This document shows, in pieces, positions 4,619 to 23,490 of a stretch of 64,000 nucleotides of DNA (position 1 is its first letter; each line of letters opens with the position of its first letter). The stretch covers positions 32,998 through 96,997 of the forward strand of contig CALHAI010000008.1 of the NCBI GenBank assembly GCA_937934295.1, in the 5' to 3' direction. Source of the stretch: an uncultured Blastocatellia bacterium (GTDB taxonomy: Bacteria > Acidobacteriota > Blastocatellia > HR10). Below the pieces are notes generated by a model. That model ran no database searches. It was not told where the DNA came from and worked only from the letters and a program-made list of their open reading frames with translations. The position numbers were made by a program, and so were the translations under genes.

Positions 4619-5899
4619 TCACAGCTCAGGAGGTTGACGCAGCCGATGCGGATAGAGCGGGAATTGTTCGGTCAGTTCCAGCACCCGCCGTCGGACCGAG
4701 CGTTGAACCTCTTCGCTCTCGGGCTGATCCAAGACCTCGGCGATCCACTGCGCGATCTTTCGCATCTCGGGCTCTTTCATCCCCCGCGTGGTGACCGCCG
4801 GCGTCCCCAAGCGAATGCCGCTGGCGATCATCGGTGGCTGCGTGTCGAAGGGAATGGTGTTCTTATTCACGGTGATCCCCGCGCGCTCCAAAGCGCTCTC
4901 GGCCTGCTTTCCCGTCAAGCCTCGGGAGAAGACGTCCACAAGCACCAGGTGCGTATCCGTCCCTCCGGAGACGATCCGATAGCCCGCCCGCGCCAGCTCC
5001 TCTGCCAAGACGCGAGCATTTTTGATGACCTGCTCCTGATACGTGCGGAACTCGGGCTGCATGGCCTCCTTGAAGCACACGGCCTTGGCCGCGATGATGT
5101 GAACGTGAGGTCCGCCCTGCACGCAGGGGAAGACGGCACGATCAATCTCCCGCGCGTACTTCTCCTTGCACAGGATCAGGCCCGCCCGCGGGCCGCGCAA
5201 TGTCTTATGCGTCGTCGTCGTCACGAAGTCACAGCAGGGAACGGGGCTCGGATGTAGGCCCGTCGCCACGAATCCGGCGATATGCGCGATGTCGGCCATC
5301 ACGACGGCCCCGACCTCGTGAGCGATCGCCGCGATGCGCTCGAAATCAATGACGCGCGGATAGGCGCTCGCTCCGCAGACGAGCATTTTTGGCCGATGCT
5401 CGTGGGCCAACCGCTCCAACTCCTCATAGTCGATCTGCTCCGTCTCGCGGTTCACCCCATAGGGGATCACGCGGAAGTACTTCCCTGAGAAATTCAACGG
5501 ATGCCCGTGCGTCAGATGCCCTCCGTGCGAGAGATTCATCCCGAGGATCGTATCTCCGGGCTGCAGCACGGCGATGTAGACGGCCATGTTCGCTTGCGAG
5601 CCCGAATACGGCTGCACGTTCACGTGCTCGGCGCCGAAGAGTTGCTTCGCCCGCTGGATCGCCAGCGACTCCACGACGTCCACGAATTCGCATCCCCCAT
5701 AGTAGCGCTTGCGCGGATACCCCTCGGCATACTTGTTCGTGAAGACCGATCCCATGGCTTCGAGGACGGCCTCGCTGACGAAATTCTCCGAGGCGATCAA
5801 TTCCAAACCCCGCGCCTGTCGCTCCGTCTCCTGGAGGATGGCCTCGGCGATCTCCGGGTCCACCACGCGCAGCGGCCGTGTATGCCAATCGTTCATCAT
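4619..5899 (-). CDS. glyA: Serine hydroxymethyltransferase
   Basis: [33 protein letters not shown] (PLP Lys), [26 protein letters not shown] before ATG 5899. Confidence 0.98.
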
Positions 5900-5986
5900 G
5901 ACGACTCCTTGCTTGCGGGATTCCCGCACCTTCGCATGAGACGGAATCTTACCGCAGGGCCGAGCACACCTTCAAGCAGGGCTTCG

Positions 5987-6913
5987 TCAGGAACGCCGCA
6001 CCACGACGCGCCGCCGCTCTCCGCCCTTTCCCAAATATGCGCGAGACAACTCCAGGAAAGTCCGAAGCGGCTCCGACGGCGTATCCTCTTTCCGATAGGC
6101 GACGCCCAATTCCCACCGACTCTTCAAGCCCCGAATGGGGAGCGCGCGCAGAAGTCCCGCGTGCACCTCTCGCTGAACCATGAGCCACGGGAGAATACTC
6201 ACCCCCAGACCGACCTCCACCATCTTCTTGATCGCTTCATCGCGATTCAGTTCCATGGCGACATGCGGGCGAACCCCCGCATGCTCGAAGAAGAGATCAA
6301 TGATCCGCCGCCGATTCCCTCCCCGCTCCCCGAGGATCAACGGCTCAGCGGCCAATTGCATGACCGTCACCTCTCGCGCCTGAGCTAAAGGATGCCCAGG
6401 AGGGACGACCGCCACCAACCGATCGCCGTAGAGCGATTCGGTCTGAAGCAGCGGCGCTTCGACCGGCAGGGAGATCAAACCGACATCCAGCCGATGCTCC
6501 AGAAGGCGTCGGATGATGGCTTCGCTCGTGCCGGCGAAGACGACCAGATCCAGGAGCGGAAAGCGCTTCTTCAACTCGCTGAGGATCTCCGGCAGCGGAT
6601 GAATGGCGATCATCGTCGAGGCCGTTCCCACACGCAGCGTGATCCGCTGCTCCTCAGCGAGCGCGGCGATCTCCGAACGCGCCAAATCGCACGCGCTCAA
6701 AATCGCCTGAGCATGTTTGAGCAATGCCCGCCCGGCGGACGTGAGCGTGGCCCGCTTGCGCACCCGCGCGAAGAGCTTTGTCCCCAGTTCCTCCTCCAAT
6801 GCTTTGATGTGAAGGCTCACGGCTGCTTGCGAGAGATTCACGCGGCGTCCGGCGAGCGTAAAGCTCCCCGTCTCGGCCACGGCTCGGAAGGTGCGCAGGT
6901 GTCGCAACTCCAT
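5987..6913 (-). CDS. LysR-family transcriptional regulator
   Basis: MELRHLRTF...GSFTLAG...LSQAAVSLHIKALEEELG HTH plus a PBP2 effector domain. Divergent from the SIS operon. Confidence 0.95.
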   Translation of the reverse strand: MELRHLRTFRAVAETGSFTLAGRRVNLSQAAVSLHIKALEEELGTKLFARVRKRATLTSAGRALLKHAQAILSACDLARSEIAALAEEQRITLRVGTASTMIAIHPLPEILSELKKRFPLLDLVVFAGTSEAIIRRLLEHRLDVGLISLPVEAPLLQTESLYGDRLVAVVPPGHPLAQAREVTVMQLAAEPLILGERGGNRRRIIDLFFEHAGVRPHVAMELNRDEAIKKMVEVGLGVSILPWLMVQREVHAGLLRALPIRGLKSRWELGVAYRKEDTPSEPLRTFLELSRAYLGKGGERRRVVVRRS

Positions 6914-7042
6914 GGCATTCCCCCTTGCATCAGCAATCTTCATGCATCTCATTAAAACTCTCAGTTTCCCCGCACCTTGCCTATTGTACTAGAATTCCCA
7001 CGTGAGCGCCGAAGATGCGCCGGACGCATGAGACGCGGGTGG

Positions 7043-8101
7043 ATGATGAAGGAAGGGTTGGAAGGAACATTCACATACCGGGAGATTTATCGCCAACCGG
7101 GAGCGCTGCGCGAGACGTTGCGGCGCGCGCCTTCCCGCTTCGCGCGCGTGGCGTCAATAGGTCCTCTGAGGCACTTCACGGAGGTGCTCTTCACCGGGTG
7201 CGGATCATCCTATCACATCGCCCTCTATGCGGCGCACGCCTGGGGAACGCTGCTGGGGCTTCGCGCGCGCGCGCTCCCTGCGTCTGAAATCCTGAACTTC
7301 CTGAAGGCGCATCTCTATGCGGGGGCGCGACCTTTGCTCTTCGCCATCTCGCGCAGCGGCGGGACTGATGAGACCGTTCTCGCGGCAGAACGAGTGAAGG
7401 CGACTGTTGAGGCTACGGTCATCGGCGTGACGATTGAGCCCGAATGTCCGCTCGGGCGTACGGCTGACATACATTTGTCCTTCTCCGAATGCCCCGAACA
7501 GAGCTTGGTCACCACGGGATCGCTGACGTGCATGATGCTTGGCCTGTTGCTTTTGGCCGACGCCTTCGGCGGAGGAACGCTTCAGGCCGAGGCGGCCGCT
7601 CTCCCTCAGGAGGTCGCGCAGAGCCTCCAAGAGAACGAACGCTTCCTGCGCACCTACGCCGAAGATCGCGCTCTCGCTCGTCTCATCTTCTTGGGGTCTG
7701 GTCCCTTCTATGCATTGGCGGCGGAAGCGGCTCTCAAGGTGATCGAGATGGCGCTCACCCCCGCCCACTACTATCCCACGTTGGAATTTCGACACGGGCC
7801 GCATCTGCTCCTCTCGCCGGAGACGCTGCTGGTGATCTTTCCGGCCGAGGCGGAGGGCCCGTATGTGAATCGAGTGCTCGAGGAGGCGCGCGCAGCCCAG
7901 GCGCGCCCCCTTCTCATCAGCGCTCGGGCGATGGAGACGTCGGCACCGCAGCTCATTCTCGGAGGTCGCGTGAGCGAACTCCTGCGCCCCATCCTCTTCG
8001 CTCACCTCATCCAGCAATTGGCTTTCTGGAGGGCTGCGGCCGCCGGAGTGAACCCGGATGCCCCGCCGCGATTGACGCGTATCGTGCGATGGAACGGATG
8101 A
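7043..8101 (+). CDS. Double-SIS-domain sugar-phosphate deaminase/deglycase (AgaS / NagB-II / FrlB-like)
   Basis: TYREIYRQP, FTGCGSSYH, ISRSGGT, LGSG...AAEAALKVIEM, EFRHGP, C-terminal NPDAP. No glutaminase domain, so it is not GlmS. Confidence 0.85.
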   Translation: MMKEGLEGTFTYREIYRQPGALRETLRRAPSRFARVASIGPLRHFTEVLFTGCGSSYHIALYAAHAWGTLLGLRARALPASEILNFLKAHLYAGARPLLFAISRSGGTDETVLAAERVKATVEATVIGVTIEPECPLGRTADIHLSFSECPEQSLVTTGSLTCMMLGLLLLADAFGGGTLQAEAAALPQEVAQSLQENERFLRTYAEDRALARLIFLGSGPFYALAAEAALKVIEMALTPAHYYPTLEFRHGPHLLLSPETLLVIFPAEAEGPYVNRVLEEARAAQARPLLISARAMETSAPQLILGGRVSELLRPILFAHLIQQLAFWRAAAAGVNPDAPPRLTRIVRWNG

Positions 8102-9177
8102 TGAGCGACGCGCTCGAATCGTCGCATGCCTTCCGAAGACGCGAGCCGGATGTGATGCCCGAGGGACAACCGGTGTTCCTCGCCGGCGTCGATGGTGGGG
8201 GGACGAAAACGACGGCCCTGGTCGCCGATGAACGACTGACCATCCTCGGAGAGGGACATTCCGGTCCCTCGAACTTTTTGCGCGTCGGCGTGGAAGTGGC
8301 CGTCACCGCCATCTTGGAGGCTCTTGAGGACGCCTGCCGCCGGGCTGGGCTCGTGCCCGCGAATCTCCGCGCGCTGGGGATCGGCTTGGCGGGAATCGCC
8401 CACCCCGCACATTATCGGCGCATGCGGGAAGCGCTCCTCCGAGCGCTGGTCGAGCGCTTGGCCTACGGCACGCGCGACCCCCAACAGGTGGAGAACATCG
8501 TGCTGACGACCGATGCCGAGATCGCGCTCTACGGAGCGACCGATGGTCAACCGGGCGTCGTCATCATCTCCGGGACGGGCTCGATCGCGTACGGGGTGAA
8601 CGCGCGGGGACAGAAAGCACGCTCTGGAGGCTGGGGCCCGACCTTCGGCGATGAAGGGAGCGGATACGACATCGCGCGGCGCGCGTTGACGGCGGTCGCC
8701 TCGGCCTACGATGGACGGATGCCGCCGACGCTTTTGACCGAACGGGTCTGTCGCTATTTCGGCATCGAGAGCCCGGCCGAACTGCCGCGCGTCATTTATG
8801 GGGACGCGACGAGCCCCAACATCGCCCCCTTGAGCGAAGTCGTCATTCAAGCCGCTCGCGAAGGGGATGCTGTCGCTCGAGAGATTCTGCGCGAGGCGGG
8901 CTGGGAATTGGCGCGAACGGCCATCGCCGTCATTAAACGCTTGCGCCTGCAGCAGGAGGCCTTTCGCGTCTCTTACGTCGGCGGCGTCTTCTCCGCCGGA
9001 GAATTGATTCTGGAGCCGATTCGCCAGAAGATCCGGGAGGTCGCTCCGAAGGCCGAACTCAGCCCTCCGCGCTTTCCGCCCGCTGTGGGCGCGCTTAAGC
9101 TAGCGCTCGCGCGGCTCGGACTTTCCGACCGAGAATCCGAAGCCGCCTGCCCGCTGCCCAAACTGGGCGTGCGGTGA
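8098..9177 (+). CDS. BadF/BadG/BcrA/BcrD-family amino-sugar kinase (GlcNAc/GlcN/MurNAc kinase-like)
   Basis: GVDGGGTKT, TDAEIAL, ISGTGS, GGWG...GDEGSG motifs. ATGA overlap with the SIS gene; alternative start 8155. Confidence 0.88.
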   Translation: MMSDALESSHAFRRREPDVMPEGQPVFLAGVDGGGTKTTALVADERLTILGEGHSGPSNFLRVGVEVAVTAILEALEDACRRAGLVPANLRALGIGLAGIAHPAHYRRMREALLRALVERLAYGTRDPQQVENIVLTTDAEIALYGATDGQPGVVIISGTGSIAYGVNARGQKARSGGWGPTFGDEGSGYDIARRALTAVASAYDGRMPPTLLTERVCRYFGIESPAELPRVIYGDATSPNIAPLSEVVIQAAREGDAVAREILREAGWELARTAIAVIKRLRLQQEAFRVSYVGGVFSAGELILEPIRQKIREVAPKAELSPPRFPPAVGALKLALARLGLSDRESEAACPLPKLGVR

Positions 9178-10586
9178 GCGCTCTTGAGGAAGAACCGATG
9201 GGGTGGGAGATCGCCGGATATCGAGAGATCAAGGGCGGTCACCTGCATTTGGATGGCGTGAGCGCTCGACGCTTGGCCGAACACTACGGGACGCCGCTTT
9301 TCGTCTTCTCCGAATCGCGCGTGAAGGCTAACGTCCGCGAGCTTCTGGAGAGCGCTCGGCGCGTCCATCCGCGCGTGAGGCTCTGCTATGCGGCGAAAGC
9401 GAACTCACTGCTGGCCATCCTCCGAGCCGTTCGCGAAGCGGGAGCGGACGTTGAGGTCAACAGCGGCGGCGAACTCTACAAAGCCCTGCGCGCCGGTTTT
9501 CGGCCCGAGCAGATCGTCTTCAATGGCGTGAGCAAGACGTTCGAGGAACTGGAGGAAGCGATTCGCGCCGAGATCGATGCCATCAACGTGGATTCGCTGG
9601 CGGAGTTGGAGATGATCGCGACCCTCGCCGAGCGCCTCGGCAAACGCGCCAATGTCGCGCTCCGCCTAGTCCCGGAGATCGAGACGGGCTCACACGCGGG
9701 ATTGCAAACGGCTCTGCTCACCTCGAAATTCGGCCTCTCGCCGTCGGAGATCCCCAAGGGCATTCAGCATGCGCTGGCCCATTCTCGCTCGATCAATCTC
9801 GTCGGGCTTCATGTGCATGTCGGCTCGCAGACGCCGACGCGCGAGCCTTACGCTCGCGCTTTCGCGATGATGTGGCGACTGGCCCTCGCCCTCTATCGTG
9901 AGACCGGCCATCGCTTGCGTCATGTGAACCTGGGAGGCGGCCTGCCCGTCATCTACGCGCACGACGATCGCGTGGTGGCGGAGGTTGGCGAACGCGGACA
10001 GCTCTTTCGCGCCGCATGGGACATCGGCGCGCTTCTGCGCGCAATGCTGGAGACAGCTCTTGAGGTCGCCAAAGACCGTGCGGCGCGCGACCTGCTCGAG
10101 GACCTGGAGATCCTCTTCGAGCCGGGGCGACGTGTGATCGCGGATGCCGGGACGCTCCTGGTGACGATCCGCAATCTCAAGACGCGGTCGGAGACGAGGG
10201 ATACGTGGCTTTTTCTCGATGCGGGGACGGAACTGCTCCCCTCGATGAGCCACTACAAGTGGTACTATCACGTCATCTCGGCCGATCGAACGGCCGAGCC
10301 ACATGAGACCCCATATAAATTGGCGGGCCCGCTGTGCGATGGGGGCGACGTGTATTTCGACATCGAAGGTACGGCGCAGCTCCCCGCTTATCGCTTCCTT
10401 CCCGAAGGCCTGCGTATCGGAAATGTGCTCGCCGTCTTGGACGTCGGCGCATATACGGTCGCGCAGATGTCGAACTACAACGGTCGCCCATTTCCGGCCA
10501 TCCTGTTGATCACCTCCTCCGGAGATGTGCGACCCATTCGTCCTCGCCAGAGCTATGAGGATCTGGTGAGAGGCGAATCGGTGTGA
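9174..10586 (+). CDS. Fold-type III PLP-dependent decarboxylase, D-ornithine/D-lysine decarboxylase (DokD)-like member of the Orn/Lys/Arg/DAP decarboxylase family
   Basis: YAAKAN (PLP Lys), SKFG, HVHVGSQ, GGG, EPGR, KLAGPLCDGGD, DVGAY. Lacks the LysA-typical RPxxY and CES motifs. Family is certain; the subfamily call rests on recalled resemblance to Salmonella DokD. Confidence 0.8.
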   Translation: MSALEEEPMGWEIAGYREIKGGHLHLDGVSARRLAEHYGTPLFVFSESRVKANVRELLESARRVHPRVRLCYAAKANSLLAILRAVREAGADVEVNSGGELYKALRAGFRPEQIVFNGVSKTFEELEEAIRAEIDAINVDSLAELEMIATLAERLGKRANVALRLVPEIETGSHAGLQTALLTSKFGLSPSEIPKGIQHALAHSRSINLVGLHVHVGSQTPTREPYARAFAMMWRLALALYRETGHRLRHVNLGGGLPVIYAHDDRVVAEVGERGQLFRAAWDIGALLRAMLETALEVAKDRAARDLLEDLEILFEPGRRVIADAGTLLVTIRNLKTRSETRDTWLFLDAGTELLPSMSHYKWYYHVISADRTAEPHETPYKLAGPLCDGGDVYFDIEGTAQLPAYRFLPEGLRIGNVLAVLDVGAYTVAQMSNYNGRPFPAILLITSSGDVRPIRPRQSYEDLVRGESV

Positions 10587-10601
10587 GAATCGCGCACGAC
10601 G

Positions 10602-12107
10602 ATGCGACTTCACGCGCTCGATCTGGCGATCATCGCCGCTTACTTCGTGGGGACGACGCTCCTCGGGATGTGGCTCGGGCGCGGACAGCGCACGACGAGC
10701 GAGTATTTCGTCAGCGGGCGGAATCTCCCGTGGTGGGCCATCGCGCTCTCGATCGTGGCGACCGAGACGAGCACGGTCACCTTCATCAGTGTGCCCGGAT
10801 ATGCCTATATGAAGGATGCCAACGGTGAGGGAGGTGATCTGACTTTCCTGCAGCTCGCGTGCGGATACCTGATCGGGCGCCTCATCATCAGCGTCCTGTT
10901 CATCCCCCTCTACTTTCGCGGGGAACTTCTGACGGCCTATCAGGTCCTGGCTCACCGATTCGGTGAACGCGCGCGCCGCGCAGCCTCCGGACTCTTCCTC
11001 CTCACGCGGAGTTTGGCCGATGGCTTTCGACTCTTCGCCACGGCCATTGTGCTCGCGGCGGTGACCGGATGGAGCGATCCGACTTCGATCTTATTGATCG
11101 GTGGGGCGACGATCTTCTACACGTATGTGGGGGGACAACGAGCCGTCATTTGGACGGACGTCATGCAGTTCGGCGTGTATATGGTCGGGGCCTTAGCCGC
11201 CCTGGATGTGCTTTTGGCACGTCTTCCCGGCGGTTGGGAGGCAGCCTGGGCGATGGCCGAAGCGCAGGGGAAATGGCGAGTCTTTGATTTCACGTGGGAC
11301 CTGACCCGAAGCTATACCTTCTGGTCGGGGATCATCGGCGGCGCCTTCCTGACGATGGCCACGCACGGGACCGATCAACTCATCGTGCAGCGCTACTTGG
11401 CGAGCCGCACGGCGCGACAGGCAACGGCCGCGCTCTTGGTGAGCGCACTCATCGTCCTGCTGCAGTTCTTCCTCTTCTTGCTCCTCGGCGTCCTCCTCTT
11501 CGTCTTCTATGCGCACTTTCCGCCGTCGGTGCCGTTCACCAAGAGCGATCGCATCTTCCCATATTTCATCGTGCATGAGCTGCCGATGGGGCTTGTGGGG
11601 CTCGTCATCGCGGCCATCTTCGCTGCGGCGATGTCGACGCTCTCCAGCTCCTTGAACTCTTCGGCGGCGGCAGTGGTGACGGATTTCTATCGCCCCCTTC
11701 GGGGTGAGGGTTTCTCGGAAGCCCACTATCTGCGCGTCGCTCGCAGACTGACGCTCGGTTGGGGGATCGTCCAGATCAGCGTAGCGCTTGTCGCCCGCGC
11801 GCTTTCGCAGCGCGTCGTGGACGAGGTCCTGGCGATCGCGGCCTTCACCAACGGAGCGATCCTCGGCGTCTTCTTCCTCGGCACGCTCGCGGGGCGCGTC
11901 GGCGAATCGGCGGCATTGGTGGGCATGGTCAGTGGGCTTTTGGTCATGCTGTATATCAGATTCTTCACCGCAATCGCCTGGCCGTGGTTCGTCGTGATCG
12001 GATCGGCGACGACGGTGATCACGGGCTTGGCGAGCCAAACGCTGAGAGAGATCGCTATCCGAAGGGTTGAACTGACGCGGATCGAGCGATCCCGAGCACA
12101 TCGCTGA
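10602..12107 (+). CDS. Sodium:solute symporter (SSS) family transporter
   Basis: About 13 hydrophobic segments; [42 protein letters not shown] motifs. Confidence 0.93.
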
Positions 12108-12115
12108 AGATCGTC

Positions 12116-13879
12116 ATGAAGCTGACGCAGAACGACTGGATCATTATCGTAGCGTACCTCGTCCTCTCGCTCGGGATCGGCCTCGCGTACACGCGACGAG
12201 CGGGTCAGAGTGTGGCCGAGTACTTCCTCTCAGGGCGCCACTTGCCGTGGTGGTTGGCCGGGACTTCGATGGTCGCGACGACCTTCGCCGCCGATACGCC
12301 CTTAGCCGTCACTGAGATGGTTGCCCGGCACGGCGTGGCGGGCAATTGGCTCTGGTGGAATTTCGTCATGAGCGGCATGCTCACGGTCTTCTTGTACGCC
12401 CGGCTCTGGCGGCGCGCCGGGGTGATGACGGATGTGGAGTTCATCGAGCTGCGATATGCTGGGCGGGCGGCCGCTTTCCTGCGGGGGTTTCGAGCGATCT
12501 ACCTCGGGCTCCTCATGAACAGCCTCATCATGGGCTGGGTGACTCTCGGCATGGCGAAGGTCATCGGCCTGTCGCTCAACATCGGGAAGTTGGAGGCGGC
12601 CTTCCTCTGCTTGGGGATCACAGCCTTTTATTCCCTGCTCTCGGGACTCTGGGGGGTCGTCGTCACGGATGCCGTTCAGTTTGTGATCGCAATGGTAGGG
12701 GCGATCGCGCTCGCCGTCTTCGCTCTGGAAGTCGTTGGGGGAATATCCGGGCTCATGGCGCGACTCCCGGAGCACTTCGGGAGCGTGGAAGCGGCGATCG
12801 CCGTCTGGCCGGGATGGGGATCAGCGTGGCTTCCCGCGGAGACGCTCCTCGTGTACATCGGTCTCCAGTGGTGGGCGTCTTGGTATCCGGGAGCGGAACC
12901 GGGAGGCGGGGGGTATATCGCGCAGCGCATCTTCTCGACCCGAGATGAGCGGCACGGCGTTTTGGCCACACTCTGGTTCAACATCGCTCACTACACGCTA
13001 AGGCCCTGGCCGTGGATTCTGGTCGCCCTCTCGGCCGTCGTCCTCTATCCCCATTTGCGCATGACTGATCCGACAGCCCTCTATGTGCGCGTGATGGTGG
13101 ATCATCTGCCTCCGATCTGGCGCGGATTGCTCCTCGCTTCCTTCGCGGCAGCGTACATGTCGACGATCGCGACGCATTTGAATTGGGGCACGTCGTATCT
13201 CATCAACGACTTCTATCGCCGTTTCGTCCGCCCTTCGGCAGATGAGCGGCATTATGTCCACGTCTCGCGCGTGGCGACGGGGCTCTTGGCGCTCATTTCG
13301 GTCATCGTGACGCTGAACCTACAGAGGATCACCGGGGCCTGGGAGTTGCTGCTCGGCTTAGGGGCAGGGACCGGACTCGTCTATTTGCTGCGCTGGTTCT
13401 GGTGGCGGATCAACGCCTGGTCGGAGATCGCTGCCATGACGACGGCTCTTACGGCCACCGTGGGACTGAAGATCGCGCGTCCCTTCTCCGAGGACGATCC
13501 CTTGCTCTACGCCAAATCCATGCTCGTGACCGCCACCGTGACGACGATAGTATGGCTGTTGGTGACTTGGCTCACCCCAGCCGAGCCCGAGGCGAAGCTG
13601 AGGGAGTTTTACGAGCGTGTTCGTCCGGGCGGCCCTGGTTGGGCTCCTCTCGCCCGACGACTCAACGTTCCGGCCCAGAACTCGCTCGCCCCGTATCTGG
13701 TGAGTTGGGTCCTCGGATGCGTGCTCATCTACAGCGTCCTCTTCGGGATCGGCGCTCTGATCTTTGGCCAATGGACCAGGGCTCTCCTCTCGCTCGGCGT
13801 CGGGATTTTCGCCGGTGTCGGAGCTCTCAAGCCCTTCGCTCGCCACCAAAATCCCCAAAAGGGGTTATGCTCATCATGA
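12116..13879 (+). CDS. Sodium:solute symporter (SSS) family transporter, a different subfamily from the upstream one
   Basis: EYFLSGRHLPWW, SMVATTFAADTP, GGGGYIAQR, AAYMSTIATHLNWG motifs; multi-TM. Confidence 0.93.
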   Translation: MKLTQNDWIIIVAYLVLSLGIGLAYTRRAGQSVAEYFLSGRHLPWWLAGTSMVATTFAADTPLAVTEMVARHGVAGNWLWWNFVMSGMLTVFLYARLWRRAGVMTDVEFIELRYAGRAAAFLRGFRAIYLGLLMNSLIMGWVTLGMAKVIGLSLNIGKLEAAFLCLGITAFYSLLSGLWGVVVTDAVQFVIAMVGAIALAVFALEVVGGISGLMARLPEHFGSVEAAIAVWPGWGSAWLPAETLLVYIGLQWWASWYPGAEPGGGGYIAQRIFSTRDERHGVLATLWFNIAHYTLRPWPWILVALSAVVLYPHLRMTDPTALYVRVMVDHLPPIWRGLLLASFAAAYMSTIATHLNWGTSYLINDFYRRFVRPSADERHYVHVSRVATGLLALISVIVTLNLQRITGAWELLLGLGAGTGLVYLLRWFWWRINAWSEIAAMTTALTATVGLKIARPFSEDDPLLYAKSMLVTATVTTIVWLLVTWLTPAEPEAKLREFYERVRPGGPGWAPLARRLNVPAQNSLAPYLVSWVLGCVLIYSVLFGIGALIFGQWTRALLSLGVGIFAGVGALKPFARHQNPQKGLCSS

Positions 13880-13903
13880 GGATCATTAAAGGAGGGGTAC
13901 GGT

Positions 13904-13961
13904 TTCCGAAGATTTGGAAATTTCTTCCAAATTTTTGGAAGCACCTCTCTGATATTTGGAG
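13904..13961. promoter_or_regulatory. Tandem palindromic operator/enhancer-like sites (TTCC-N8-GGAA twice plus a half-conserved third copy, 21-bp period)
   Basis: TTCCGAAGATTTGGAA at 13904-13919 and TTCCAAATTTTTGGAA at 13925-13940. TTTGGA recurs at 13913, 13934 and 13955. AT-rich patch in a GC-rich background. Confidence 0.6.
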
Positions 13962-14036
13962 AGGGGGGAGGCCCTCGTTGGCTCTATCCTGCTCTCACTG
14001 AGCAGCTTAGACAGATGCGGGAGCTCGCCTGTGTCG

Positions 14037-14052
14037 CGGAACGCAAGTTGCT
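14037..14052 (+). promoter_or_regulatory. Putative sigma54 (-24/-12) promoter for the TonB-dependent receptor
   Basis: CGGAACG-CAAG-TTGCT: GG at 14038-39 and GC at 14050-51 with canonical spacing; 2 mismatches to TGGCACG-N4-TTGCW. Confidence 0.5.
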
Positions 14053-14152
14053 TAAAAATCACTACAGCATGACGTAAGACCGGCATGATCTTTCACATTC
14101 CAGGGCCATGCAGCGATGCGAGGGCCCTGTGAGACGACCTTGGAGGAGGCTT

Positions 14153-17100
14153 ATGAAGAGATTCGTTGTGGGCGTGACTTGTTTAGCGCTTTTGGTCTCT
14201 GGACTGACGATGACGTTTGGCCAGGGGACGACCTCACGAGTCGTGGGCGTGGTGACCGATCCGATGGGAGCTGTGGTCCCTGATGCTGTCGTCACGATCA
14301 CCAACGAGGCGACGCGCGTCTCCTACACGACGCGCACGACATCGGCAGGAACCTACGTCTTCGACGCGATCCCTATTGGAACCTACACGGTGACGGTGGA
14401 GAAAGAGGGATTCAAGAAGTTCGTCTCCACGGGGAACGTCCTGACGATCGGTCAGCCGATGACCGTCAACGTGAGGCTCGAAGTCGGGCAGATCGCGGAA
14501 GCGGTGGAGGTAACGGGAGCTGCTGAGCTGGTTCAGACGAGCACGTCCGGGAACTTTGGGAATCTCGTGACCCAACAGGCGATCTTGAATCTGCCGATCG
14601 TTGGCGTTCGAGGGCGCAATCCCCTGAACTTCGTCCTCTTTCAGCCAGGCGTGGTCTCGGGAGCGAACACAGGAGGAGGCGTCCACGTTCATGGTGCGCG
14701 CGATCGCGCCTGGAACTTCACGCTCGATGGCATTGACATCAATGAGACGAGTGCGGGCGGGTCGAACTTCTCGCCGCTGCGCACGAATCCCGACACGCTG
14801 GCCGAATTCCGCGTCCTGACGAGCAATTTCACGGCCGAGTATGGACGCAACAGTGGCGGGCAGGTCACGATGGTGACCCGCTCGGGCACCAATGAGTTCC
14901 ACGGCACGCTCTTTTGGTTTTACCAAACCCCGCGTCTCCACGCCAACGAGTACGAGAATAACTTGAACGACCTACCGAAGCGTCAATTCGTCCAACACAT
15001 CCCGGGCTTCAGTCTCGGTGGACCGATCATCCGTAACAGGACCTTCTTCTTCACGAATCTTCAGGTCTTGCGCACGCGCGAGACCCGCATCGTCACGAGC
15101 ACCGTCTATACGGCCGAAGCGCGGCGCGGTCTCTTCCGCTACGTCCGAGGTGGGCGGAACCTTCCGGCGGGCGTCCCGGGCGCCTCGGTGGACTTCAATG
15201 GGAATCCGCTGCCGGGCCTCAACATCGGCGTTTACGATATCGCGGCGAATGATCCGGCTGGTTACGGCCTCGATCCGACGATCAAGCGCTTGATTGACAT
15301 GACCCCGCTGCCCAACAACTTCGCCGTTGGGGACGGTCTGAACGTCGCCGGATTCACCTGGTCGCCCATTCAGCGAGAAGAGCAGGAGGACTTCGTCCTG
15401 CGGATTGACCATGTCTTCAATGAGCGGCATACGCTCTTCGGGCGATGGGCGCATGGGCGTCAGGATACGCTGGGCGACTTCGTCAACAGCGGATGGGCAC
15501 GCTTCCCGAACACGCCGCGCTTTGTTGATACGACGCGCGATCCGCGGAACCTGGCGATCAACTGGCGGTGGACGCCGACGGCCCGCATGACGAACGAGTT
15601 CGTCGTTGGGATGAATCGGTTCACCTTCAGCTTCAACAATCCCGATCCGAATCCGCAAACGCCCCCCTTCGTCCTGAACAACGTGACGACGCCGCTGCCG
15701 GGGACGGATCCCTTCTTCTACAACGCGCGCGCGCTGACGACCTATCAACTGGTGGACAACTTCACCTACGTTCGCGGGGCACATACGTTCAAGGCAGGCG
15801 TCAACTTCCGTTACCAGCGGCACATTGATCGGCGGACGTCAGTGGCCGGGTTGAACACACGCCTCTCGGCTAATCTGAGCACAGCGGTGAACACGGTGGA
15901 TCCGGTCACCTTCAAGCTCCCGGCGGACATCAACACGACCTTCGATCGCCCGCGCCTACAGGCCGCGATCAACGATCTGCTCGGGCGCGTTGGGACGCTC
16001 AGCCGTGCCTTCGTCGCCATCAGCGATGACCAATATGGACCACCGGGGACGACGTTCAGCTTCGATGCCCGCTATCCCGAATACGACTTCTACTGGCAGG
16101 ATACTTGGAAGGTTCGTCCGAACTTGACGTTCGATCTCGGCCTGCGATGGGAGATCAAGCTCTCGCCGAGTGACCCGCGCAATCGCATCCTTCGCCCGGA
16201 GCGCCCCATGGTCTTGGGCGCGCCGCCCAGCGATACGATTCGCTGGGTGAAGGGAGAGCTGTATGATGACGATTGGAATAACTTCGGTCCCACGATCGGC
16301 TTCGCCTGGGATCCGTTCGGCACGGGGAAGACCTCGCTCCGAGCAAACTATCGCCTGGCGTACGATCGTGTGCCGACCTTTCTCTTCTCGTCCTTCATCT
16401 TCCCCACGATGCCGGGGATCGCTCTGCCGGTGATCAATCAGGAATTCGGGCAGCGCGGCGGGCGAATTCGCGATGGGCTGCCTGTGCTCGCGCCTCCGGC
16501 CGGTCTGACGCCCGCGCAACTGCGACAGCCGGCCCCCTTCTCGACAGCGAGCATCCATGTCGTGGATCCGAGCTTGCGCTCGGCGAAGACGAACATGTGG
16601 GGCTTGAGCATTCAGCGCGAGCTGATGTGGAAGACTGTGCTCGAGCTGAATTACATCGGGCGCCGTGGCGTCGGATTGCTCGGTGCCTACAACGTCAACC
16701 AGGCGGAGATCTTCCAGAACGGATTCCTGGAGGCCTTCCGCATCGTGCAGGCCGGTGGAGAGAGCGATCTCATCAACCGCTTGCTCGAGAAGGACTCGCG
16801 GCGGCGCGCTGGGGAGACCGGTTCGCAAATGCTGCGGCGGCTCTTCGCTTCGACGCTGAACTTGAATTCGGTGGCGGCTCTGGCGGCATCTTTGGCGACG
16901 CGCACGGAGGCGGGTCAACCCCTAGTTGTCGCCAGCGGTTTCAGCCCCTTCTTCTTCTTCCCCTTCCCGCAGTTCGCCGGTGGCCTGGTTGTCCTCGATA
17001 GCAATGACTTCTCGACCTACCACGCCTTCGAAGCACAGATCACACGGCAGCTCAGCCGCGGCTTGAGCTTCCAGTTCAGCTACACCTTCGCCAAATCGCT

Positions 17101-17782
17101 CGACACGCGCTCCTTCGATCCCACGTTCACAACGGCCGCGGGAGGAACCGCCCAATCGGCCTCGAGCACACCCTTTGATCTCCGCAATCGGCGATTGAAC
17201 TACGCGCGGTCAGACTTCGACCGTCGGCACTCCTTCCAGGGGTATTGGACGTGGGATCTCCCCTTCGGCTTGGGTCAGCGCTGGGGGTCTAATTGGCATC
17301 CCGCGCTGAATCATATCGCCGGAGGCTGGCAGGTTGCCGGCATCGTGCGCTGGCATTCGGGTCGTCCTTTCACCGTCTACTCCGGGGCGAATACCCTGAG
17401 CAACGTCGTCTCTTCCCCGGCCGATTGCAACGGGTGCACGCCGGACATGGGGCGCTTGATCATGGAGGCGGGAACCTTCTATTACTTCGACGCTCAACAG
17501 CGTGGACTCTTCTCGATTCCGGCTCCCGGGCGACTCGGGAACACCGGGCGTAACTTCTTCACCGGACCGTCGTTCTTCACCCTCGACCTCACCATCGGGA
17601 AGCAGTTCCGCGTCACCGAGCGTCAAAACCTCCAATTCCGGTTGGAGATTCAGAACGCGACCAACACGCCCTCATTCGGGTTCCCGACGGCGGTGGTCAC
17701 CAGCGCCGTCTTCGGCCGGGTGCGGGATAGCGTCGTCAGCAGCTCGCGGAAGATGCAACTCGCTTTGAAGTACAACTTCTGA
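14153..17782 (+). CDS. TonB-dependent receptor, Oar-like, with N-terminal carboxypeptidase-regulatory-like domain
   Basis: RBS GGAGGAGG, signal peptide, GVVTDPMGAVVP...Y domain, plug motif FRVLTSNFTAEYGRNSGGQV, C-terminal LKYNF. Confidence 0.93.
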   Translation: MKRFVVGVTCLALLVSGLTMTFGQGTTSRVVGVVTDPMGAVVPDAVVTITNEATRVSYTTRTTSAGTYVFDAIPIGTYTVTVEKEGFKKFVSTGNVLTIGQPMTVNVRLEVGQIAEAVEVTGAAELVQTSTSGNFGNLVTQQAILNLPIVGVRGRNPLNFVLFQPGVVSGANTGGGVHVHGARDRAWNFTLDGIDINETSAGGSNFSPLRTNPDTLAEFRVLTSNFTAEYGRNSGGQVTMVTRSGTNEFHGTLFWFYQTPRLHANEYENNLNDLPKRQFVQHIPGFSLGGPIIRNRTFFFTNLQVLRTRETRIVTSTVYTAEARRGLFRYVRGGRNLPAGVPGASVDFNGNPLPGLNIGVYDIAANDPAGYGLDPTIKRLIDMTPLPNNFAVGDGLNVAGFTWSPIQREEQEDFVLRIDHVFNERHTLFGRWAHGRQDTLGDFVNSGWARFPNTPRFVDTTRDPRNLAINWRWTPTARMTNEFVVGMNRFTFSFNNPDPNPQTPPFVLNNVTTPLPGTDPFFYNARALTTYQLVDNFTYVRGAHTFKAGVNFRYQRHIDRRTSVAGLNTRLSANLSTAVNTVDPVTFKLPADINTTFDRPRLQAAINDLLGRVGTLSRAFVAISDDQYGPPGTTFSFDARYPEYDFYWQDTWKVRPNLTFDLGLRWEIKLSPSDPRNRILRPERPMVLGAPPSDTIRWVKGELYDDDWNNFGPTIGFAWDPFGTGKTSLRANYRLAYDRVPTFLFSSFIFPTMPGIALPVINQEFGQRGGRIRDGLPVLAPPAGLTPAQLRQPAPFSTASIHVVDPSLRSAKTNMWGLSIQRELMWKTVLELNYIGRRGVGLLGAYNVNQAEIFQNGFLEAFRIVQAGGESDLINRLLEKDSRRRAGETGSQMLRRLFASTLNLNSVAALAASLATRTEAGQPLVVASGFSPFFFFPFPQFAGGLVVLDSNDFSTYHAFEAQITRQLSRGLSFQFSYTFAKSLDTRSFDPTFTTAAGGTAQSASSTPFDLRNRRLNYARSDFDRRHSFQGYWTWDLPFGLGQRWGSNWHPALNHIAGGWQVAGIVRWHSGRPFTVYSGANTLSNVVSSPADCNGCTPDMGRLIMEAGTFYYFDAQQRGLFSIPAPGRLGNTGRNFFTGPSFFTLDLTIGKQFRVTERQNLQFRLEIQNATNTPSFGFPTAVVTSAVFGRVRDSVVSSSRKMQLALKYNF

Positions 17783-17940: not shown

Positions 17941-18864
17941 ATGGAGAAGTCGAGGGATCGGCTTGTTCGAGCAACGGCGTGCGATGGCATGGTCCGATGT
18001 GTCGCGGCGATCACGACGAATCTGGTGGATGAAGCGAGCCGCCGGCATCGCGTCTCACCAACAGTCTCGGCCGCTCTCGGGCGCACGCTGACGGCAGGCG
18101 TGCTCTTGGGGAGCTTGCTGAAGGATACGGAGAAGGTGACGATCCTCCTGCAGTGCACGGGCCCGATCGGCGGCATTACCGTCGAAGCTGATGCGCATGG
18201 AAACGTCCGTGGGTATGCGAGGAATCCGCAGGTGGATCTGCCGCTTACAGAGAGGAAGAAATTCGATGTTCGCGGCATCATCGGTGGCGGGATGCTTTAC
18301 GTCTTGCGCGAGGCCGATTATTATCGCACGGGCCTTTTCCGCGATCCCTATTGCGGTTCGGTCCCCATCGTCTCAGGGGAGATCGCCGAGGACGTCGCGT
18401 ACTATTTGACTCAGTCGGAGCAGGTTCCTTCGGCTGTCTCATTGGGCGTCTTCGTCCTCCCAGATGAGGAACGCTTCTTTCGCGTCGAGGCCGCCGGAGG
18501 ATTCCTCATCCAAACGTTCCCAGGCGTCGCGGACGACGTCCTGCGGAATCTCGAAGCTTCAGTACTGGCCGCCCCTTATATCACCGAGATGATCCGTCGG
18601 GGAATGGGGCCACGCGAGATCCTACAGACAGCGCTGGGCGACTATGCCTTCGAGATCCTCGAGGAGAAGGAGGTGCGCTTCGCCTGTACGTGTTCGTCCG
18701 AGCGGGCACGCCGTATCTTAGCGGCTCTGGATCCGGAGGAATTGCGCGCGATGCTCCGAGAGGACGGAGGAGCGGAAATGACCTGCCATTTCTGCAATGC
18801 GATGTATCGCTTCGACGTGACGGAACTGCGCGCATTGCTTCCTGAGGGCGAGGCGACGCACTAG
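17941..18864 (+). CDS. hslO: Hsp33 redox-regulated chaperone
   Basis: ALGRTLT, SGEIAEDVAYYLTQSEQVPS, AAGGFLIQ and the C-terminal zinc motif CTC...CHFC. Confidence 0.95.
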   Translation: MEKSRDRLVRATACDGMVRCVAAITTNLVDEASRRHRVSPTVSAALGRTLTAGVLLGSLLKDTEKVTILLQCTGPIGGITVEADAHGNVRGYARNPQVDLPLTERKKFDVRGIIGGGMLYVLREADYYRTGLFRDPYCGSVPIVSGEIAEDVAYYLTQSEQVPSAVSLGVFVLPDEERFFRVEAAGGFLIQTFPGVADDVLRNLEASVLAAPYITEMIRRGMGPREILQTALGDYAFEILEEKEVRFACTCSSERARRILAALDPEELRAMLREDGGAEMTCHFCNAMYRFDVTELRALLPEGEATH

Positions 18865-20138
18865 CTCAACCGTAACAGATCGCGCGCGGAAGCGGCCAAT
18901 CCCATGACGAAAGCGGCGATGAGGAGTCCCCCGATGGCCAAAGCCCAGGGAGCGCCGATCCACTCCGCGAGCGATCCCATCATGAGATTCCCGATCGGCA
19001 TCAAGCCCAGGAACGAAAGCGTGTAGAGGCTCATGACGCGGCCGCGCACGTGGCTGGACACGTGCGTCTGCAACAGCGTGTTGACGACGGCCGCGCTGCT
19101 CACCATCGCCCATCCGTCCATGAAGAGGAAAAAGAGCGAGAGCTCGAAGGTGCGCGAGAGCGCGAAGCCGAACGTCGAGAGGCCGAACGTGATCCCTCCG
19201 AGGACGGCGAGTGTCCCCTTGGATCGAAAATCTCCAAGGCGAGCGAGCACCACAGCTCCCAGGACAGCCCCCGATCCGCTGGCCGCCATCAGGTATCCAA
19301 GCCCCGTGGCTCCGCAGTGAAGGATGTCGCGGGCGAAAACCGGCAAGAGCGTGATGTAGGGAAGGCCGAAGAGGCTGATCGCGGCGACGATCGCGAGCAG
19401 GCGCAGAATCCGACCCTGCGCGCGGACGTAGGCTACGCCTTCGAGAAACCCCTCCCACAGGGAGTTCGTCCTCCGAGGACCGGATGCCTGCGGCAATCGA
19501 ATGCGCCGCAAGGCGAAGATGAGGGCCAGGAAACTCACGGCGTTGAGGTAGAAACACCCGGCTACTCCGATCGCGCCGACGGCGAATCCCGCAAGCGTCG
19601 GGCCAATCACCCGCGAGAGATTGAATTGGATGGAATTCAGCGCGATCGCGTTCATCAGATCCTCGGGCTCAACCAAATCGCGAACGATCGCTTGATATGT
19701 CGGCAAGGTCAGCGCCGTCATCACGCCGCTTAAGAGCGCAATGGTAACGATATGCCCGACTGTCACAATGCGCAGCTCCGTCAGCGTCCCCAAGCCCAAG
19801 GCCAGGAGCATCAATCCCGTTTGCGTCAGGAGCAAGAGCCGCCGCCGATCGAAGAGGTCGGCCACCACCCCACCAATGAGCGAGAAGGCGAGAACCGGAA
19901 GTGATCCGGCGAACCCCACGAACCCAAGCCAGAAGGGGGAATTCGAGAGTTGTAACACGAGCCATCCCTGCGCGACCGACTGCATCCACGTCCCGATGTT
20001 GGAGAGGAAGGAACCCGTCCAGAAGAGGCGATAGTTGCGATTTCGGAGAGCGCGAAAGATCCGTCCGGCCCCGCGTGCCCTCAGTGCGTCCGTTTCAATG
20101 GCCACTTCCGTTCGATCCACGATGATCTCCCGCCACAT
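18861..20138 (-). CDS. MFS transporter (12-TM, DHA3/EntS-like)
   Basis: ALRNRNYRLFW..SFLSNIGTWMQ, GGVVADLFDRRR motif A, RGRVMSLY. Exact start uncertain. Confidence 0.9.
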   Translation of the reverse strand: MWREIIVDRTEVAIETDALRARGAGRIFRALRNRNYRLFWTGSFLSNIGTWMQSVAQGWLVLQLSNSPFWLGFVGFAGSLPVLAFSLIGGVVADLFDRRRLLLLTQTGLMLLALGLGTLTELRIVTVGHIVTIALLSGVMTALTLPTYQAIVRDLVEPEDLMNAIALNSIQFNLSRVIGPTLAGFAVGAIGVAGCFYLNAVSFLALIFALRRIRLPQASGPRRTNSLWEGFLEGVAYVRAQGRILRLLAIVAAISLFGLPYITLLPVFARDILHCGATGLGYLMAASGSGAVLGAVVLARLGDFRSKGTLAVLGGITFGLSTFGFALSRTFELSLFFLFMDGWAMVSSAAVVNTLLQTHVSSHVRGRVMSLYTLSFLGLMPIGNLMMGSLAEWIGAPWALAIGGLLIAAFVMGLAASARDLLRLS

Positions 20139-20223
20139 TGGGAATGTAGGGGGTATTCCCCTCCTCCGTCAAGCACGACGCCCCCCGCGTTCTTCACGCA
20201 GAAGGGCTTTATGGAAATTTTAC

Positions 20224-20252
20224 TTGCGCCAGCATCCGGATCGGCTTAAAAT
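20224..20252 (+). promoter_or_regulatory. sigma70-type promoter for the second TonB-dependent receptor
   Basis: TTGCGC (20224-29), N17, TAAAAT (20247-52). Confidence 0.6.
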
Positions 20253-20351: not shown

Positions 20352-20370
20352 CTAAGGAGGAAGCGTGACT

Positions 20371-23300: not shown

Positions 23301-23490
23301 CAACTTCGACAATATCACCTTCGGTGGATCGAGCCGCATCTACGGGTTGGGGATCGATCCGGCGACCGGCAATCCCGCTCCGGTGGATCCGCGCTTCCGG
23401 CAGCTTCGGCTTCCTGACGGACGCCTGAATCAGGACAATCTCCCCGGCACGCCCTTCCAAGCTCAAGTCGGCGTGCGCTTGATCTTCTGA
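20371..23490 (+). CDS. TonB-dependent receptor, Oar-like
   Basis: RBS AAGGAGG, signal peptide ending AWA-Q, GLVLDPQGAVVP, NLPINGRRF, FQVVTTNYAAEFGRSTGG, C-terminal VRLIF. Confidence 0.93.
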   Translation: MNLMRRVVRHWTSLAGVFVSIGFTVISAWAQTQASTGQIVGLVLDPQGAVVPNAKVTIVETTTGFRREVFTNEAGQYRAVLLPAGRYSVTVEASGFQTETRTGIEVNVGRAVDVNFMLKVGALAEIVEVTASLGVDTTRSESGALVTTLAIRNLPINGRRFHDFIQLTPAVQVEPQRNQLSFAGQRGINSNISIDGADYNEPFFGGIRGGERSNNAFTIPQESVAEFQVVTTNYAAEFGRSTGGLVNAVTKTGTNELHGSAFYLLRHKELTVEDAFGQLSLATQQQFGGSIGGPIKRDQLFFFGAIEDQQFSTPRQVFFPRLLGVARTPQNQEAYDFYKSLEVPFTQTNDAIAFLVRTDAQFGANHRLAVRYNFSDNNAENANATGEQLSPFTNRALSNNGTEKDRTSTVVGQWSSVLTPRLLNELRAQYSWEKRPRTANTLAPNVNTFIGSFGTRNFLPTTLTDWRVQIAEAMTWNVGAHSVKLGFEWNHVFVNQLFGFNQTGTFNLAGTNADAHLRILSLTPGDPNDHRFDDPSVTYVRQIGNLLLEMRSNELAFFGQDSWRMRRNITLYYGLRYEGQFNPEPEVNNTALYNLVKNFRFPLGQVDPARIPDNTDQIMPRMGIAWDPFGRARTVVRANFGIYYARTPLLLMAAPMNNFRLPPGDLSIQLPLRVPTGNPNTTVYRQLLAIGIDLDKFTLDKLPIISAQDVQRIAAALGIPAPDPFTGANLITWADNYRNPRAVQWSGGIEHELFNGFTTGLDFRYVNTVNLQRTRDYNLPLPIIRANDLSRRPFFGLRSRVQSRPIPTLGAVWVRESSAHSLYRGFTFSANLRRSRVQFNAFYTLSWNYSDDDNERSATGQEDTVNVYDLRPEFHFARLDARHLFAFNAVVSLPLGLEASSIIQMRSGRPLNPLTGGDTNEDFANNDRPMAAPGVLMKRNSFRDRAVRVVDLRILKGFNLWNETSKLQLSVEFFNLFNFDNITFGGSSRIYGLGIDPATGNPAPVDPRFRQLRLPDGRLNQDNLPGTPFQAQVGVRLIF

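Follow-up and report, generated by a model that had tools for sequence, protein, structure and literature searches.

A conserved Blastocatellia gene cluster with a DokD-like decarboxylase, most likely a peptidoglycan/amino-sugar scavenging locus

Gene Content and Organization of the Cluster

Here, we describe a gene cluster at positions 5987 to 17,782 of a 64,000-nt stretch of DNA (the window) from an uncultured Blastocatellia bacterium (Acidobacteriota; Blastocatellia; HR10; GenBank assembly GCA_937934295.1, contig CALHAI010000008.1, forward-strand positions 32,998 to 96,997). We confirm the cluster and its conservation, and most likely it serves the scavenging of peptidoglycan/amino sugars. 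All of its enzymes belong to known kinds but one, the decarboxylase, which is a member of an uncharacterized and widely mis-annotated subfamily. Genes were called from a listing of open reading frames (ORFs) with translation, and the calls agree with an independent gene call on a public contig that encodes identical proteins. A gene for a LysR-family regulator (5987..6913, minus strand) is divergent from five tightly packed, co-oriented genes on the plus strand. These encode a double-SIS sugar-phosphate isomerase/deaminase (7043..8101), a BadF/BadG-family amino-sugar kinase (8098..9177), a fold-III pyridoxal-phosphate-dependent decarboxylase (9198..10586), and two sodium:solute symporters (SSS), SSS1 (10602..12107) and SSS2 (12116..13879). 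A gene for a TonB-dependent receptor (TBDR; 14153..17782) follows on the same strand after a gap of 273 nt and is probably under its own promoter. The Pfam assignments of all cluster genes are far over the cut-offs.

The stop codon of the SIS gene and the start of the kinase gene (8098/8101) overlap in an ATGA at 8098-8101, the gap between the decarboxylase and SSS1 genes is 15 nt, and that between the two symporter genes is 8 nt. An earlier model-generated note on this DNA, made from the letters alone (hereafter, the original prediction), had given these junctions correctly, and the divergent LysR gene, the five co-oriented genes, and the downstream receptor gene lie where it placed them. The GTGA overlap that it reported at 9174 does exist, but the GTG is only one of two possible starts of the decarboxylase gene; the gene caller favors the ATG at 9198, which leaves a 20-nt gap after the kinase gene. 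The title of the original prediction named the kinase before the SIS protein, whereas the actual gene order is the reverse. Housekeeping genes flank the cluster: one flank carries genes for serine hydroxymethyltransferase (SHMT) and a DEAD helicase, the other those for Hsp33 and a major facilitator superfamily (MFS) transporter; elsewhere, the window carries genes for Lon, LptD, cytochrome oxidase, and ATP synthase.

The SIS Protein and the Kinase Form a Known Type of Amino-Sugar Module

The double-SIS protein matches the Pfam SIS domain in two stretches and resembles GlmD and NagB-II (for NagB-II enzymology, see PMC10201695). Its best matches in the PDB are 2cb0 (132 bits), 2dec, and 1j5x ("glucosamine-6-phosphate deaminase"), i.e., structures of the Pyrococcus/Thermotoga GlmD type (118-132 bits), whereas the FrlB-like deglycase structures 3eua and 3fkj reached 29-31 bits. 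Among the NCBIfam models, it scored 159.5 bits with GlmD (NF041128; cut-off 580), 57.1 bits with NagB-II (NF046059; cut-off 430), 124 bits with GlmS, and 91 bits with AgaS, and no FrlB model was among the matches. The protein keeps the phosphate loop CGSS, the motif SRSGxTxE, and the motif EFRHGP, which corresponds to the catalytic E-x-R/K-H-G, and these motifs align with those of 2cb0 from P. furiosus. The C-terminal Lys of GlmS and the P. furiosus protein (LDKVV) is replaced by Arg in this protein and in most acidobacterial homologues.

The kinase (Pfam BcrAD_BadFG, 168.5 bits) has its best PDB match in 8zo3, an "N-acetylmuramic acid/N-acetylglucosamine kinase" (MurK; 141.6 bits), followed by a hexokinase from Sulfolobus and the human N-acetylglucosamine (GlcNAc) kinase. 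With the NCBIfam model NagK_SO3507, it scored 149.5 bits, under the cut-off of 370. By these similarities, MurK appears to be the nearest relative of the kinase, and the GlmD-type glucosamine (GlcN)-6-phosphate deaminases that of the SIS protein, both of them known types; since neither protein reaches an NCBIfam equivalog cut-off, their exact substrates are only putative. Together, they form an amino-sugar module of the known "NagK + NagB-II" type. The original prediction had presented the cluster as an undescribed system, which overstates the case for a kinase, a double-SIS protein, a transporter, and a TBDR.

The Decarboxylase Belongs to a Distinct DokD-Like Subfamily

In public records, the decarboxylase family is named diaminopimelate decarboxylase because it just passes the NCBIfam model TIGR01048 (lysA; 316.5 bits for the window protein, cut-off 297.9). 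Control sequences revealed that this cut-off does not separate canonical enzymes from the DokD-like clade: E. coli LysA scored 487.7 bits, compared with 322-332 bits for DokD-like proteins with Asp or Glu at the specificity position and 292.6 bits for a 437-residue fragment of Salmonella DokD, a D-ornithine/D-lysine (D-Orn/D-Lys) decarboxylase. DokD-like proteins pass the model with Asp, Glu, or Ser at this position (317-352 bits), and automatic "diaminopimelate decarboxylase" names within the clade are therefore unreliable. The best PDB match of the window protein is Salmonella DokD (6n2h, 274.6 bits), compared with 229 bits for the best diaminopimelate decarboxylase. With the DokD equivalog NF052544, it scored 336.2 bits, well under the cut-off of 700, while the Salmonella DokD fragment scored 860.5 bits.

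We took 74 sequences from a full HMMER scan of 1.84 billion representatives and built a maximum-likelihood tree, in which the canonical diaminopimelate (DAP) decarboxylases, including E. coli LysA, were split from the DokD-like clade with a support of 100/97. The window family (100/100) falls within the DokD-like clade, as sister to the members with Asp or Glu (93/95). The residue at the known specificity position follows this division. It is known that an Arg on the specificity helix (R343 in the M. jannaschii enzyme) binds the distal carboxylate of DAP, and that FigC, with Thr and Tyr in place of the acidic residue, accepts N-citrylornithine (PMC7857480); our reading of this position rests on that work and on our own alignments. 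Arg is present in 103 of 103 canonical representatives (R307 in E. coli) and Asp or Glu in 23 of 23 DokD-like representatives (D356 in DokD), whereas all 66 members of the window family carry Ser (Ser357 of the window protein in 470-residue numbering). The family further has the motif GPLCDGGD (Cys-Asp) instead of the canonical GPxCE(S/T) (Cys-Glu), and an insertion of 43-47 residues (46 in the window protein) as opposed to 21-28 in canonical LysA. The Cys-Asp motif, the long insertion, and a D-A-G-x4-L-x4-(Y/F)-x-W helix are all shared with DokD, and the Arg of the EPGR motif and the helix Tyr (Tyr361) are kept.

Clade position, Ser, Cys-Asp motif, and long insertion thus define a distinct, uncharacterized subfamily, and the protein is, judged by its sequence, not a canonical LysA. 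This agrees with the original prediction, which had placed it with the D-Orn/D-Lys decarboxylases rather than with ordinary LysA, and which PDB match, motif, specificity residue, and tree all bear out. Its proposal of D-Lys or D-Orn as the substrate went too far, as the acidic residue of the DokD type is Ser in the whole family. Both characterized relatives, the DAP decarboxylases and DokD, act on D-configured centers (PMC12091041), which makes a D-center substrate the reasonable expectation; candidates are meso-DAP, D-Lys or D-Orn, or another D-center compound. Binding of the meso-DAP carboxylate could still be achieved by the EPGR arginine together with Tyr361 and Ser357. By analogy with FigC, it is also conceivable that a distal group that is neutral or substituted fits the pocket.

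A tblastn search with E. coli LysA as the query gave no further LysA-like gene for the window and 80 related loci (about 20 kb per genome sampled), and a search for an acidobacterial canonical LysA by cluster names led to archaeal sequences as the nearest canonical representatives. Our literature search found no description of a DokD-clade decarboxylase inside a wall-sugar operon, nor of the Ser-type subfamily.

The Cluster or Its Core Recurs in Relatives, in Part with Peptidoglycan Enzymes

The decarboxylase family was detected in no fewer than 411 stretches from species-representative genomes, most of them from Blastocatellia. For the comparison of gene neighborhoods, we used 80 loci with the decarboxylase from a scan of one genome per species, almost all of them from Blastocatellia/Pyrinomonadaceae, and additionally compared two further loci, L086 and L087. 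The full cluster, from SHMT to the MFS transporter, is present in L001-L003, whose decarboxylases are 90, 83, and 77% identical to that of the window. L086 (decarboxylase 62% identical) has the order SHMT-RpiB-LysR, divergent from SIS-kinase-decarboxylase-SSS, a glycoside hydrolase of family 3 (GH3), and a TBDR. In more distant Blastocatellia, a core of LysR, kinase, SSS1, and decarboxylase is combined with MurQ, NagZ-like GH3, YkuD, and VanY. This applies to L072 (LysR divergent from kinase-TonB_C-MurQ-unknown-SSS-GH3-decarboxylase), L033 (LysR divergent from kinase-MurQ-YkuD-(VanY)-decarboxylase), L057 from a metagenome-assembled genome (MAG) labelled Chloracidobacterium (LysR divergent from SSS-GH3-decarboxylase), and L004 (kinase-decarboxylase-GH3). 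L087, from another acidobacterium, has SIS-kinase-SSS, a beta-lactamase+NamZ fusion, and a TBDR, without the decarboxylase. The parts are orthologous across the variants, with identities of 43-71% for LysR, 38-64% for the kinase (found in all cluster variants), 47-68% for SSS1, and 42-57% for the GH3 protein. Co-occurrence is beyond chance for the full cluster in L001-L003, for the variant in L086, and for the core in L072, L033, L057, and L004, and the genes form a conserved LysR-linked unit, as the original prediction had supposed. A lack of co-occurrence elsewhere, which that prediction had named as one outcome that would refute it, is therefore not what we observed.

The sugar-phosphate enzyme of L072 is a true MurQ (N-acetylmuramic acid (MurNAc)-6-phosphate etherase; 391.6 bits, cut-off 168), and its GH3 protein is NagZ-like. 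Wall-specific genes in the orthologous operons comprise MurQ (L072 and L033), GH3 (L086, L072, L057, and L004), NamZ (L087), and YkuD with VanY (L033). None of the orthologous operons combines the double-SIS gene with MurQ: the former is found in the window, L001-L003, L086, and L087, the latter in L072 and L033. The fusion protein in L087 (positions 8407-10914; GCA_040754075.1) comprises 835 residues and joins a beta-lactamase/penicillin-binding-protein-like domain to NamZ_N and NamZ_C (exo-beta-N-acetylmuramidase).

Other contexts of the decarboxylase are found as well. In 51 of the 80 loci, all from Pyrinomonadaceae, an APC-family (LAT-like) amino-acid permease gene lies directly 3' of the decarboxylase gene (e.g., L006:8794-15360), a SufS-like class-V aminotransferase gene is divergent upstream, and a DAP-type MurE (554 bits) and a PRK09061-type amidohydrolase are encoded a few kb away. 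In L042 (4625-11374), L005, and about seven related loci, genes for a DAO-family FAD oxidoreductase, a TBDR, and a DUF6624 protein precede that of the decarboxylase, which hints at D-amino acids. When the decarboxylase tree is rooted with DokD, the sugar/wall context is found in three early-branching lineages, and the permease context in one large later clade.

Transporters and Receptor

SSS1 (Pfam SSF, 147.6 bits) appears to belong to a subgroup for anionic substrates similar to SiaT, SMVT, and SMCT. Its PDB matches are SMVT (192 bits), the sialic-acid transporter SiaT (5nv9; 184 bits), and the iodide symporter NIS (180 bits), i.e., the branch of SMVT, SiaT, and the carriers for iodide and monocarboxylates. 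Its identity to the SSS proteins of L072, L087, and L086 is 47-68%, and this transporter is conserved alongside the kinase in all variants. By this likeness, SSS1 would suit the acidic sugar MurNAc. SSS2 (Pfam SSF, 109 bits) is divergent and 28% identical to SSS1. Its best PDB matches are SGLT2 and SGLT1 (70-76 bits), so that it resembles SGLT-type carriers of neutral sugars and may have a corresponding substrate. SSS2 is restricted to the window clade: L086 has a GH3 gene in its position, and L087 and L072 lack it as well. The TBDR is of the acidobacterial type (CarboxypepD_reg, 67 bits; OMP_b-brl_4, 541 bits) with a signal peptide from MKRFVV, and its orthologue in L086, 71% identical, also follows the operon; wall fragments are its putative substrate.

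Regulatory Elements

The LysR protein (Pfam HTH_1, 77 bits; LysR_substrate, 172 bits) starts with MELRHLRTF, although its ORF is extendable to 6952, and it reached no NCBIfam equivalog. Orthologues take the same divergent position in L086 (71% identity) and L072 (43%). The LysR/SIS intergenic region contains the inverted repeat AAACT-CTC-AGTTT (6955..6967), a candidate LysR box of the T-N11-A type. The block around this repeat is invariant in the window and L001-L003, AAACT-TTC-AGTTT is found at the equivalent place in L086, and L072 has the similar AAAATCTTTTAGTTTT. The AAACT-N3-AGTTT repeat is a plausible LysR box, to which the LysR protein would bind.

The TBDR gene is preceded, 100 nt 5' of its start, by a sigma54-type -24/-12 element on the plus strand (GGAAC-N5-TTGCT, i.e., GG-N10-GC; 14038..14052). 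Its sequence, GGAACGCAAGTTGCT, is invariant in the window and the three relatives L001-L003, while the flanking DNA diverges, and the element has this one match in the window, with 0.06 matches expected. The element mismatches the consensus TGGCACG-N4-TTGCW at two positions, has no conserved counterpart in the more distant L086, and emerged from reading the sequence and aligning the relatives; a search of the region with the strict sigma54 consensus gave no match, and a promoter/terminator scan gave nothing over the shuffle expectation. About 100-135 nt upstream of the element, two TTCC-N8-GGAA palindromes lie 21 bp apart (13904..13940, plus strand). They are unique in the window (0 expected), alignment with L001-L003 shows no variation in the TTCC and GGAA columns, and they are a candidate enhancer (upstream activating sequence) for a sigma54 activator. 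Palindromes and GG-N10-GC element together are arranged as in typical sigma54 promoters that have an activator site. Of the sigma54-like control that had been predicted, the conserved element before the TBDR gene stands, but the strict consensus is not matched and no activator gene lies within the cluster. In the public gene call, an ORF of 66 residues on the minus strand (window 13886-14086) lies exactly over the palindromes and the sigma54-like element; this ORF is probably spurious, as it overlies these conserved features.

Discussion

We consider it moderately probable that the cluster is a LysR-controlled locus by which a thermophilic member of the Blastocatellia scavenges peptidoglycan fragments, since the recurring partners MurQ, NagZ, NamZ, YkuD, and VanY are peptidoglycan enzymes. 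Two options had been raised in the original prediction, and it is the salvage of cell-wall fragments that the operons of the relatives support, with the high-scoring MurQ, the NagZ-like GH3, YkuD, VanY, and the NamZ of L087. From the gene content, homology, conservation, and clade membership established above, we infer substrates, transport roles, and regulation as follows. The TBDR, under its own sigma54-type promoter, would take wall fragments over the outer membrane. Periplasmic glycosidases, like the NagZ-like GH3 and NamZ proteins encoded in the operons of relatives and presumably elsewhere in the genome of the window, would trim them to single sugars. SSS1 would import the acidic amino sugar, e.g., MurNAc, and SSS2 a neutral one, e.g., GlcNAc or GlcN. 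The MurK/NagK-like kinase would then form the sugar 6-phosphate, which the GlmD/NagB-II-like SIS enzyme would convert to fructose-6-phosphate; this would require NagA and perhaps MurQ from elsewhere, unless the MurQ reaction is also catalyzed by the SIS enzyme. The decarboxylase would remove the carboxyl group at the D-center of a stem-peptide amino acid, most likely converting meso-DAP to L-lysine, or alternatively D-Lys/D-Orn to cadaverine/putrescine. To our knowledge, DAP is the only D-center diamino acid in ordinary Gram-negative walls, which makes the conversion to L-lysine the most economical choice by context. The DAP-type MurE near the decarboxylase in Pyrinomonadaceae is also in favor of scavenging. 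Cultured Chloracidobacterium, which belong to the same class, require lysine and are reported to be without lysine biosynthesis genes (PMC4376005, PMC8245765, PMC12816986).

Several observations weigh against peptidoglycan scavenging. A Pfam scan of the window operon found no MurQ, NagA, glycosidase, amidase, or peptidase, and tblastn searches with E. coli NagA and NagB in the window and 86 loci found neither NagA nor NagB-I within 10 kb of any variant, so that the reading leans on the relatives. The kinase, the NagB-II-like SIS protein, and the TBDR would fit the use of chitin or GlcNAc equally well. The 51 of 80 loci in which the decarboxylase is paired with the APC permease are without sugar genes, and its link to sugars is therefore not universal. 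Lastly, the decarboxylase has neither the Arg for the DAP carboxylate nor an Asp/Glu for a distal ammonium group, so that the known rules predict neither of the proposed substrates (PMC7857480).

It is rather unlikely, in our view, that the cluster is an ordinary amino-sugar operon of the GlcNAc/chitin type into which a housekeeping DAP decarboxylase was inserted, the Ser-type family being the LysA of Blastocatellia. The passed TIGR01048 cut-off would fit, as would the distribution of the family, with an identity of about 55%, as for a vertically inherited core gene, and with a tree that resembles the species tree; the same applies to the variable neighborhood of the decarboxylase, to the DAP-type MurE near it in 31 loci, and to the retained EPGR Arg and helix Tyr, which could hold a carboxylate. 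Set against this, TIGR01048 is non-discriminating, the decarboxylase nests in the DokD-like clade, and Ser replaces the Arg that is strictly kept in canonical enzymes. Moreover, the gene sits between those of the kinase and a symporter with gaps of at most 20 nt and 15 nt, and the family has become re-associated in several lineages with TBDR, SSS, APC permease, DAO, MurQ, and GH3. Cultured Chloracidobacterium are lysine auxotrophs (PMC4376005, PMC12816986), yet the MAG so labelled carries the family. A true D-Orn/D-Lys decarboxylase, which would make putrescine or cadaverine from D-amino acids of neighbors' walls (e.g., D-Lys of the Thermotoga type) or from the product of a racemase, appears quite improbable. 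DokD is the closest solved structure, clade membership, Cys-Asp motif, W-containing helix motif, and long insertion are in common, and the Salmonella enzyme is likewise encoded with amino-acid transporters (PMC13397332), as the Pyrinomonadaceae version is followed by the APC permease. The acidic specificity residue, however, is Ser in every family member, the score with the DokD equivalog is less than half of its cut-off, and a racemase was not noticed among the neighboring genes examined at any locus. D-Lys and D-Orn are uncommon as wall components, whereas the family is near-universal in soil Pyrinomonadaceae.

The other option of the original prediction, that a conjugate of sugar and amino acid, Amadori or other, is degraded by phosphorylation, deglycation by the SIS protein, and decarboxylation of the freed lysine or ornithine, is very improbable. 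Double-SIS proteins do include the deglycases FrlB and GfrE/F, and the APC permease of relatives is a weak FrlA-like match (111 bits, cut-off 800). The SIS protein, however, is far closer to GlmD-type than to FrlB-like structures and has no FrlB model among its NCBIfam matches, the kinase is BadF/MurK-like instead of a pfkB-type FrlD, and a module of the NagK/NagB-II type as such argues against this pathway. In addition, the relatives add MurQ, NagZ, and NamZ but no Amadori genes, and the relatives of the decarboxylase act on D-centers, whereas Amadori lysine is L-configured. A biosynthetic (aminoglycoside-like) cluster was also considered, and was rejected given the LysR regulator, the two symporters, the TBDR, and the catabolic enzymes in the relatives.

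A more daring version of peptidoglycan scavenging, which we hold to be doubtful, assumes two non-orthologous replacements: the Ser-type enzyme would be an unrecognized D-center decarboxylase specific to Blastocatellia, and the role of the MurQ etherase would be taken over by the GlmD-like SIS protein. The former may be a DAP decarboxylase re-invented within the D-Orn/D-Lys clade, serving salvage or as the sole route to lysine, e.g., in relatives of the lysine-auxotrophic Chloracidobacterium, or it may act on a neutral or peptide-bound D-center, e.g., DAP within the stem peptide. For the latter, the SIS gene occupies the MurQ slot in orthologous operons and does not occur together with MurQ, the MurNAc-releasing NamZ is the sole glycosidase in one of these operons (L087), and NagA is not clustered; these points suggest that the SIS protein might do the etherase step.

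Among known systems, the MurT-MurK-MurQ cluster for MurNAc scavenging in Tannerella forsythia, with AmpG, is one point of comparison (PMC7670621, PMC10465942). Both combine, in one operon, an inner-membrane sugar transporter with a BadF-family MurNAc/GlcNAc kinase for the wall sugars of others, and L072 and L033 share the true MurQ as well. The window differs by its GlmD-like double-SIS protein in place of MurQ and by an SSS transporter; for its TBDR, LysR regulator, and fold-III decarboxylase, no counterpart is described in the Tannerella cluster. DokD is encoded in the Salmonella operon STM2358-STM2360 together with an ornithine racemase and amino-acid transporters (PMC13397332). The two loci share a DokD-clade decarboxylase with transporters, as well as its fold, Cys-Asp motif, and insertion, but the window has no racemase, Ser for Asp356, and amino-sugar/wall-degrading partners in its operon type. 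With LysA (E. coli b2838; M. jannaschii 1twi), the decarboxylase has in common the fold, the action on D-centers expected of it, the EPGR Arg, and the helix Tyr, so that the chemistry is likely similar; it differs by its separate clade, by Ser for Arg307/R343, by Cys-Asp, and by the insertion of 46 instead of 21-28 residues. The GlcNAc cluster of Shewanella oneidensis is reported (Yang et al. 2006) to comprise NagK (SO3507), NagB-II (SO3506), NagA, and NagP with a TonB-dependent receptor. The window likewise has a BadF-type kinase, a double-SIS deaminase-like protein, an inner-membrane permease, and a TBDR, but its proteins are far under the equivalog cut-offs (149.5 vs. 370 bits for the kinase; 57 vs. 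430 bits for the SIS protein), NagA is not clustered, the permease is of the SSS instead of the MFS type, a decarboxylase is embedded, and relatives carry MurNAc-specific enzymes. The muropeptide rescue operon of Bacillus subtilis, murQ-murR-murP-amiE-nagZ-namZ, contains the set of NagZ, NamZ, and MurQ that is seen across the acidobacterial variants. Its uptake is by a phosphotransferase system and it has no decarboxylase, whereas the window relies on SSS and TBDR genes and is itself without glycosidases.

If peptidoglycan scavenging is true, a class of Acidobacteria common in soil and hot springs feeds on the cell walls of others via TonB receptors and sodium symporters, and recovers an amino acid, perhaps lysine from DAP, along with the sugars, which would help to explain the lysine-requiring Chloracidobacterium in microbial mats. 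Thousands of Blastocatellia proteins named diaminopimelate decarboxylase fall into the DokD-like clade and are without the DAP-binding arginine, and metabolic reconstructions that count such proteins as LysA may therefore be wrong. The swap of Asp or Arg for Ser at a known specificity position further offers a clean, testable case of substrate switching in fold-III decarboxylases.

Additional Genes near the Loci

A second TonB receptor of the acidobacterial type is encoded downstream of the cluster (window 20365-23490); in a local match of 315 residues, it shares 37% identity with that of the cluster. A Peptidase_S58 (DmpA-like aminopeptidase) gene lies at 23754-24947, beside LptD. In L072, a 354-residue protein without Pfam or NCBIfam match is encoded between MurQ and SSS of the wall-sugar operon (5399-6463). 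In L086, genes for a GHL10/GHL6 (glycoside-hydrolase-like) protein (18864-20243) and a second TBDR lie after the TBDR gene of the operon.

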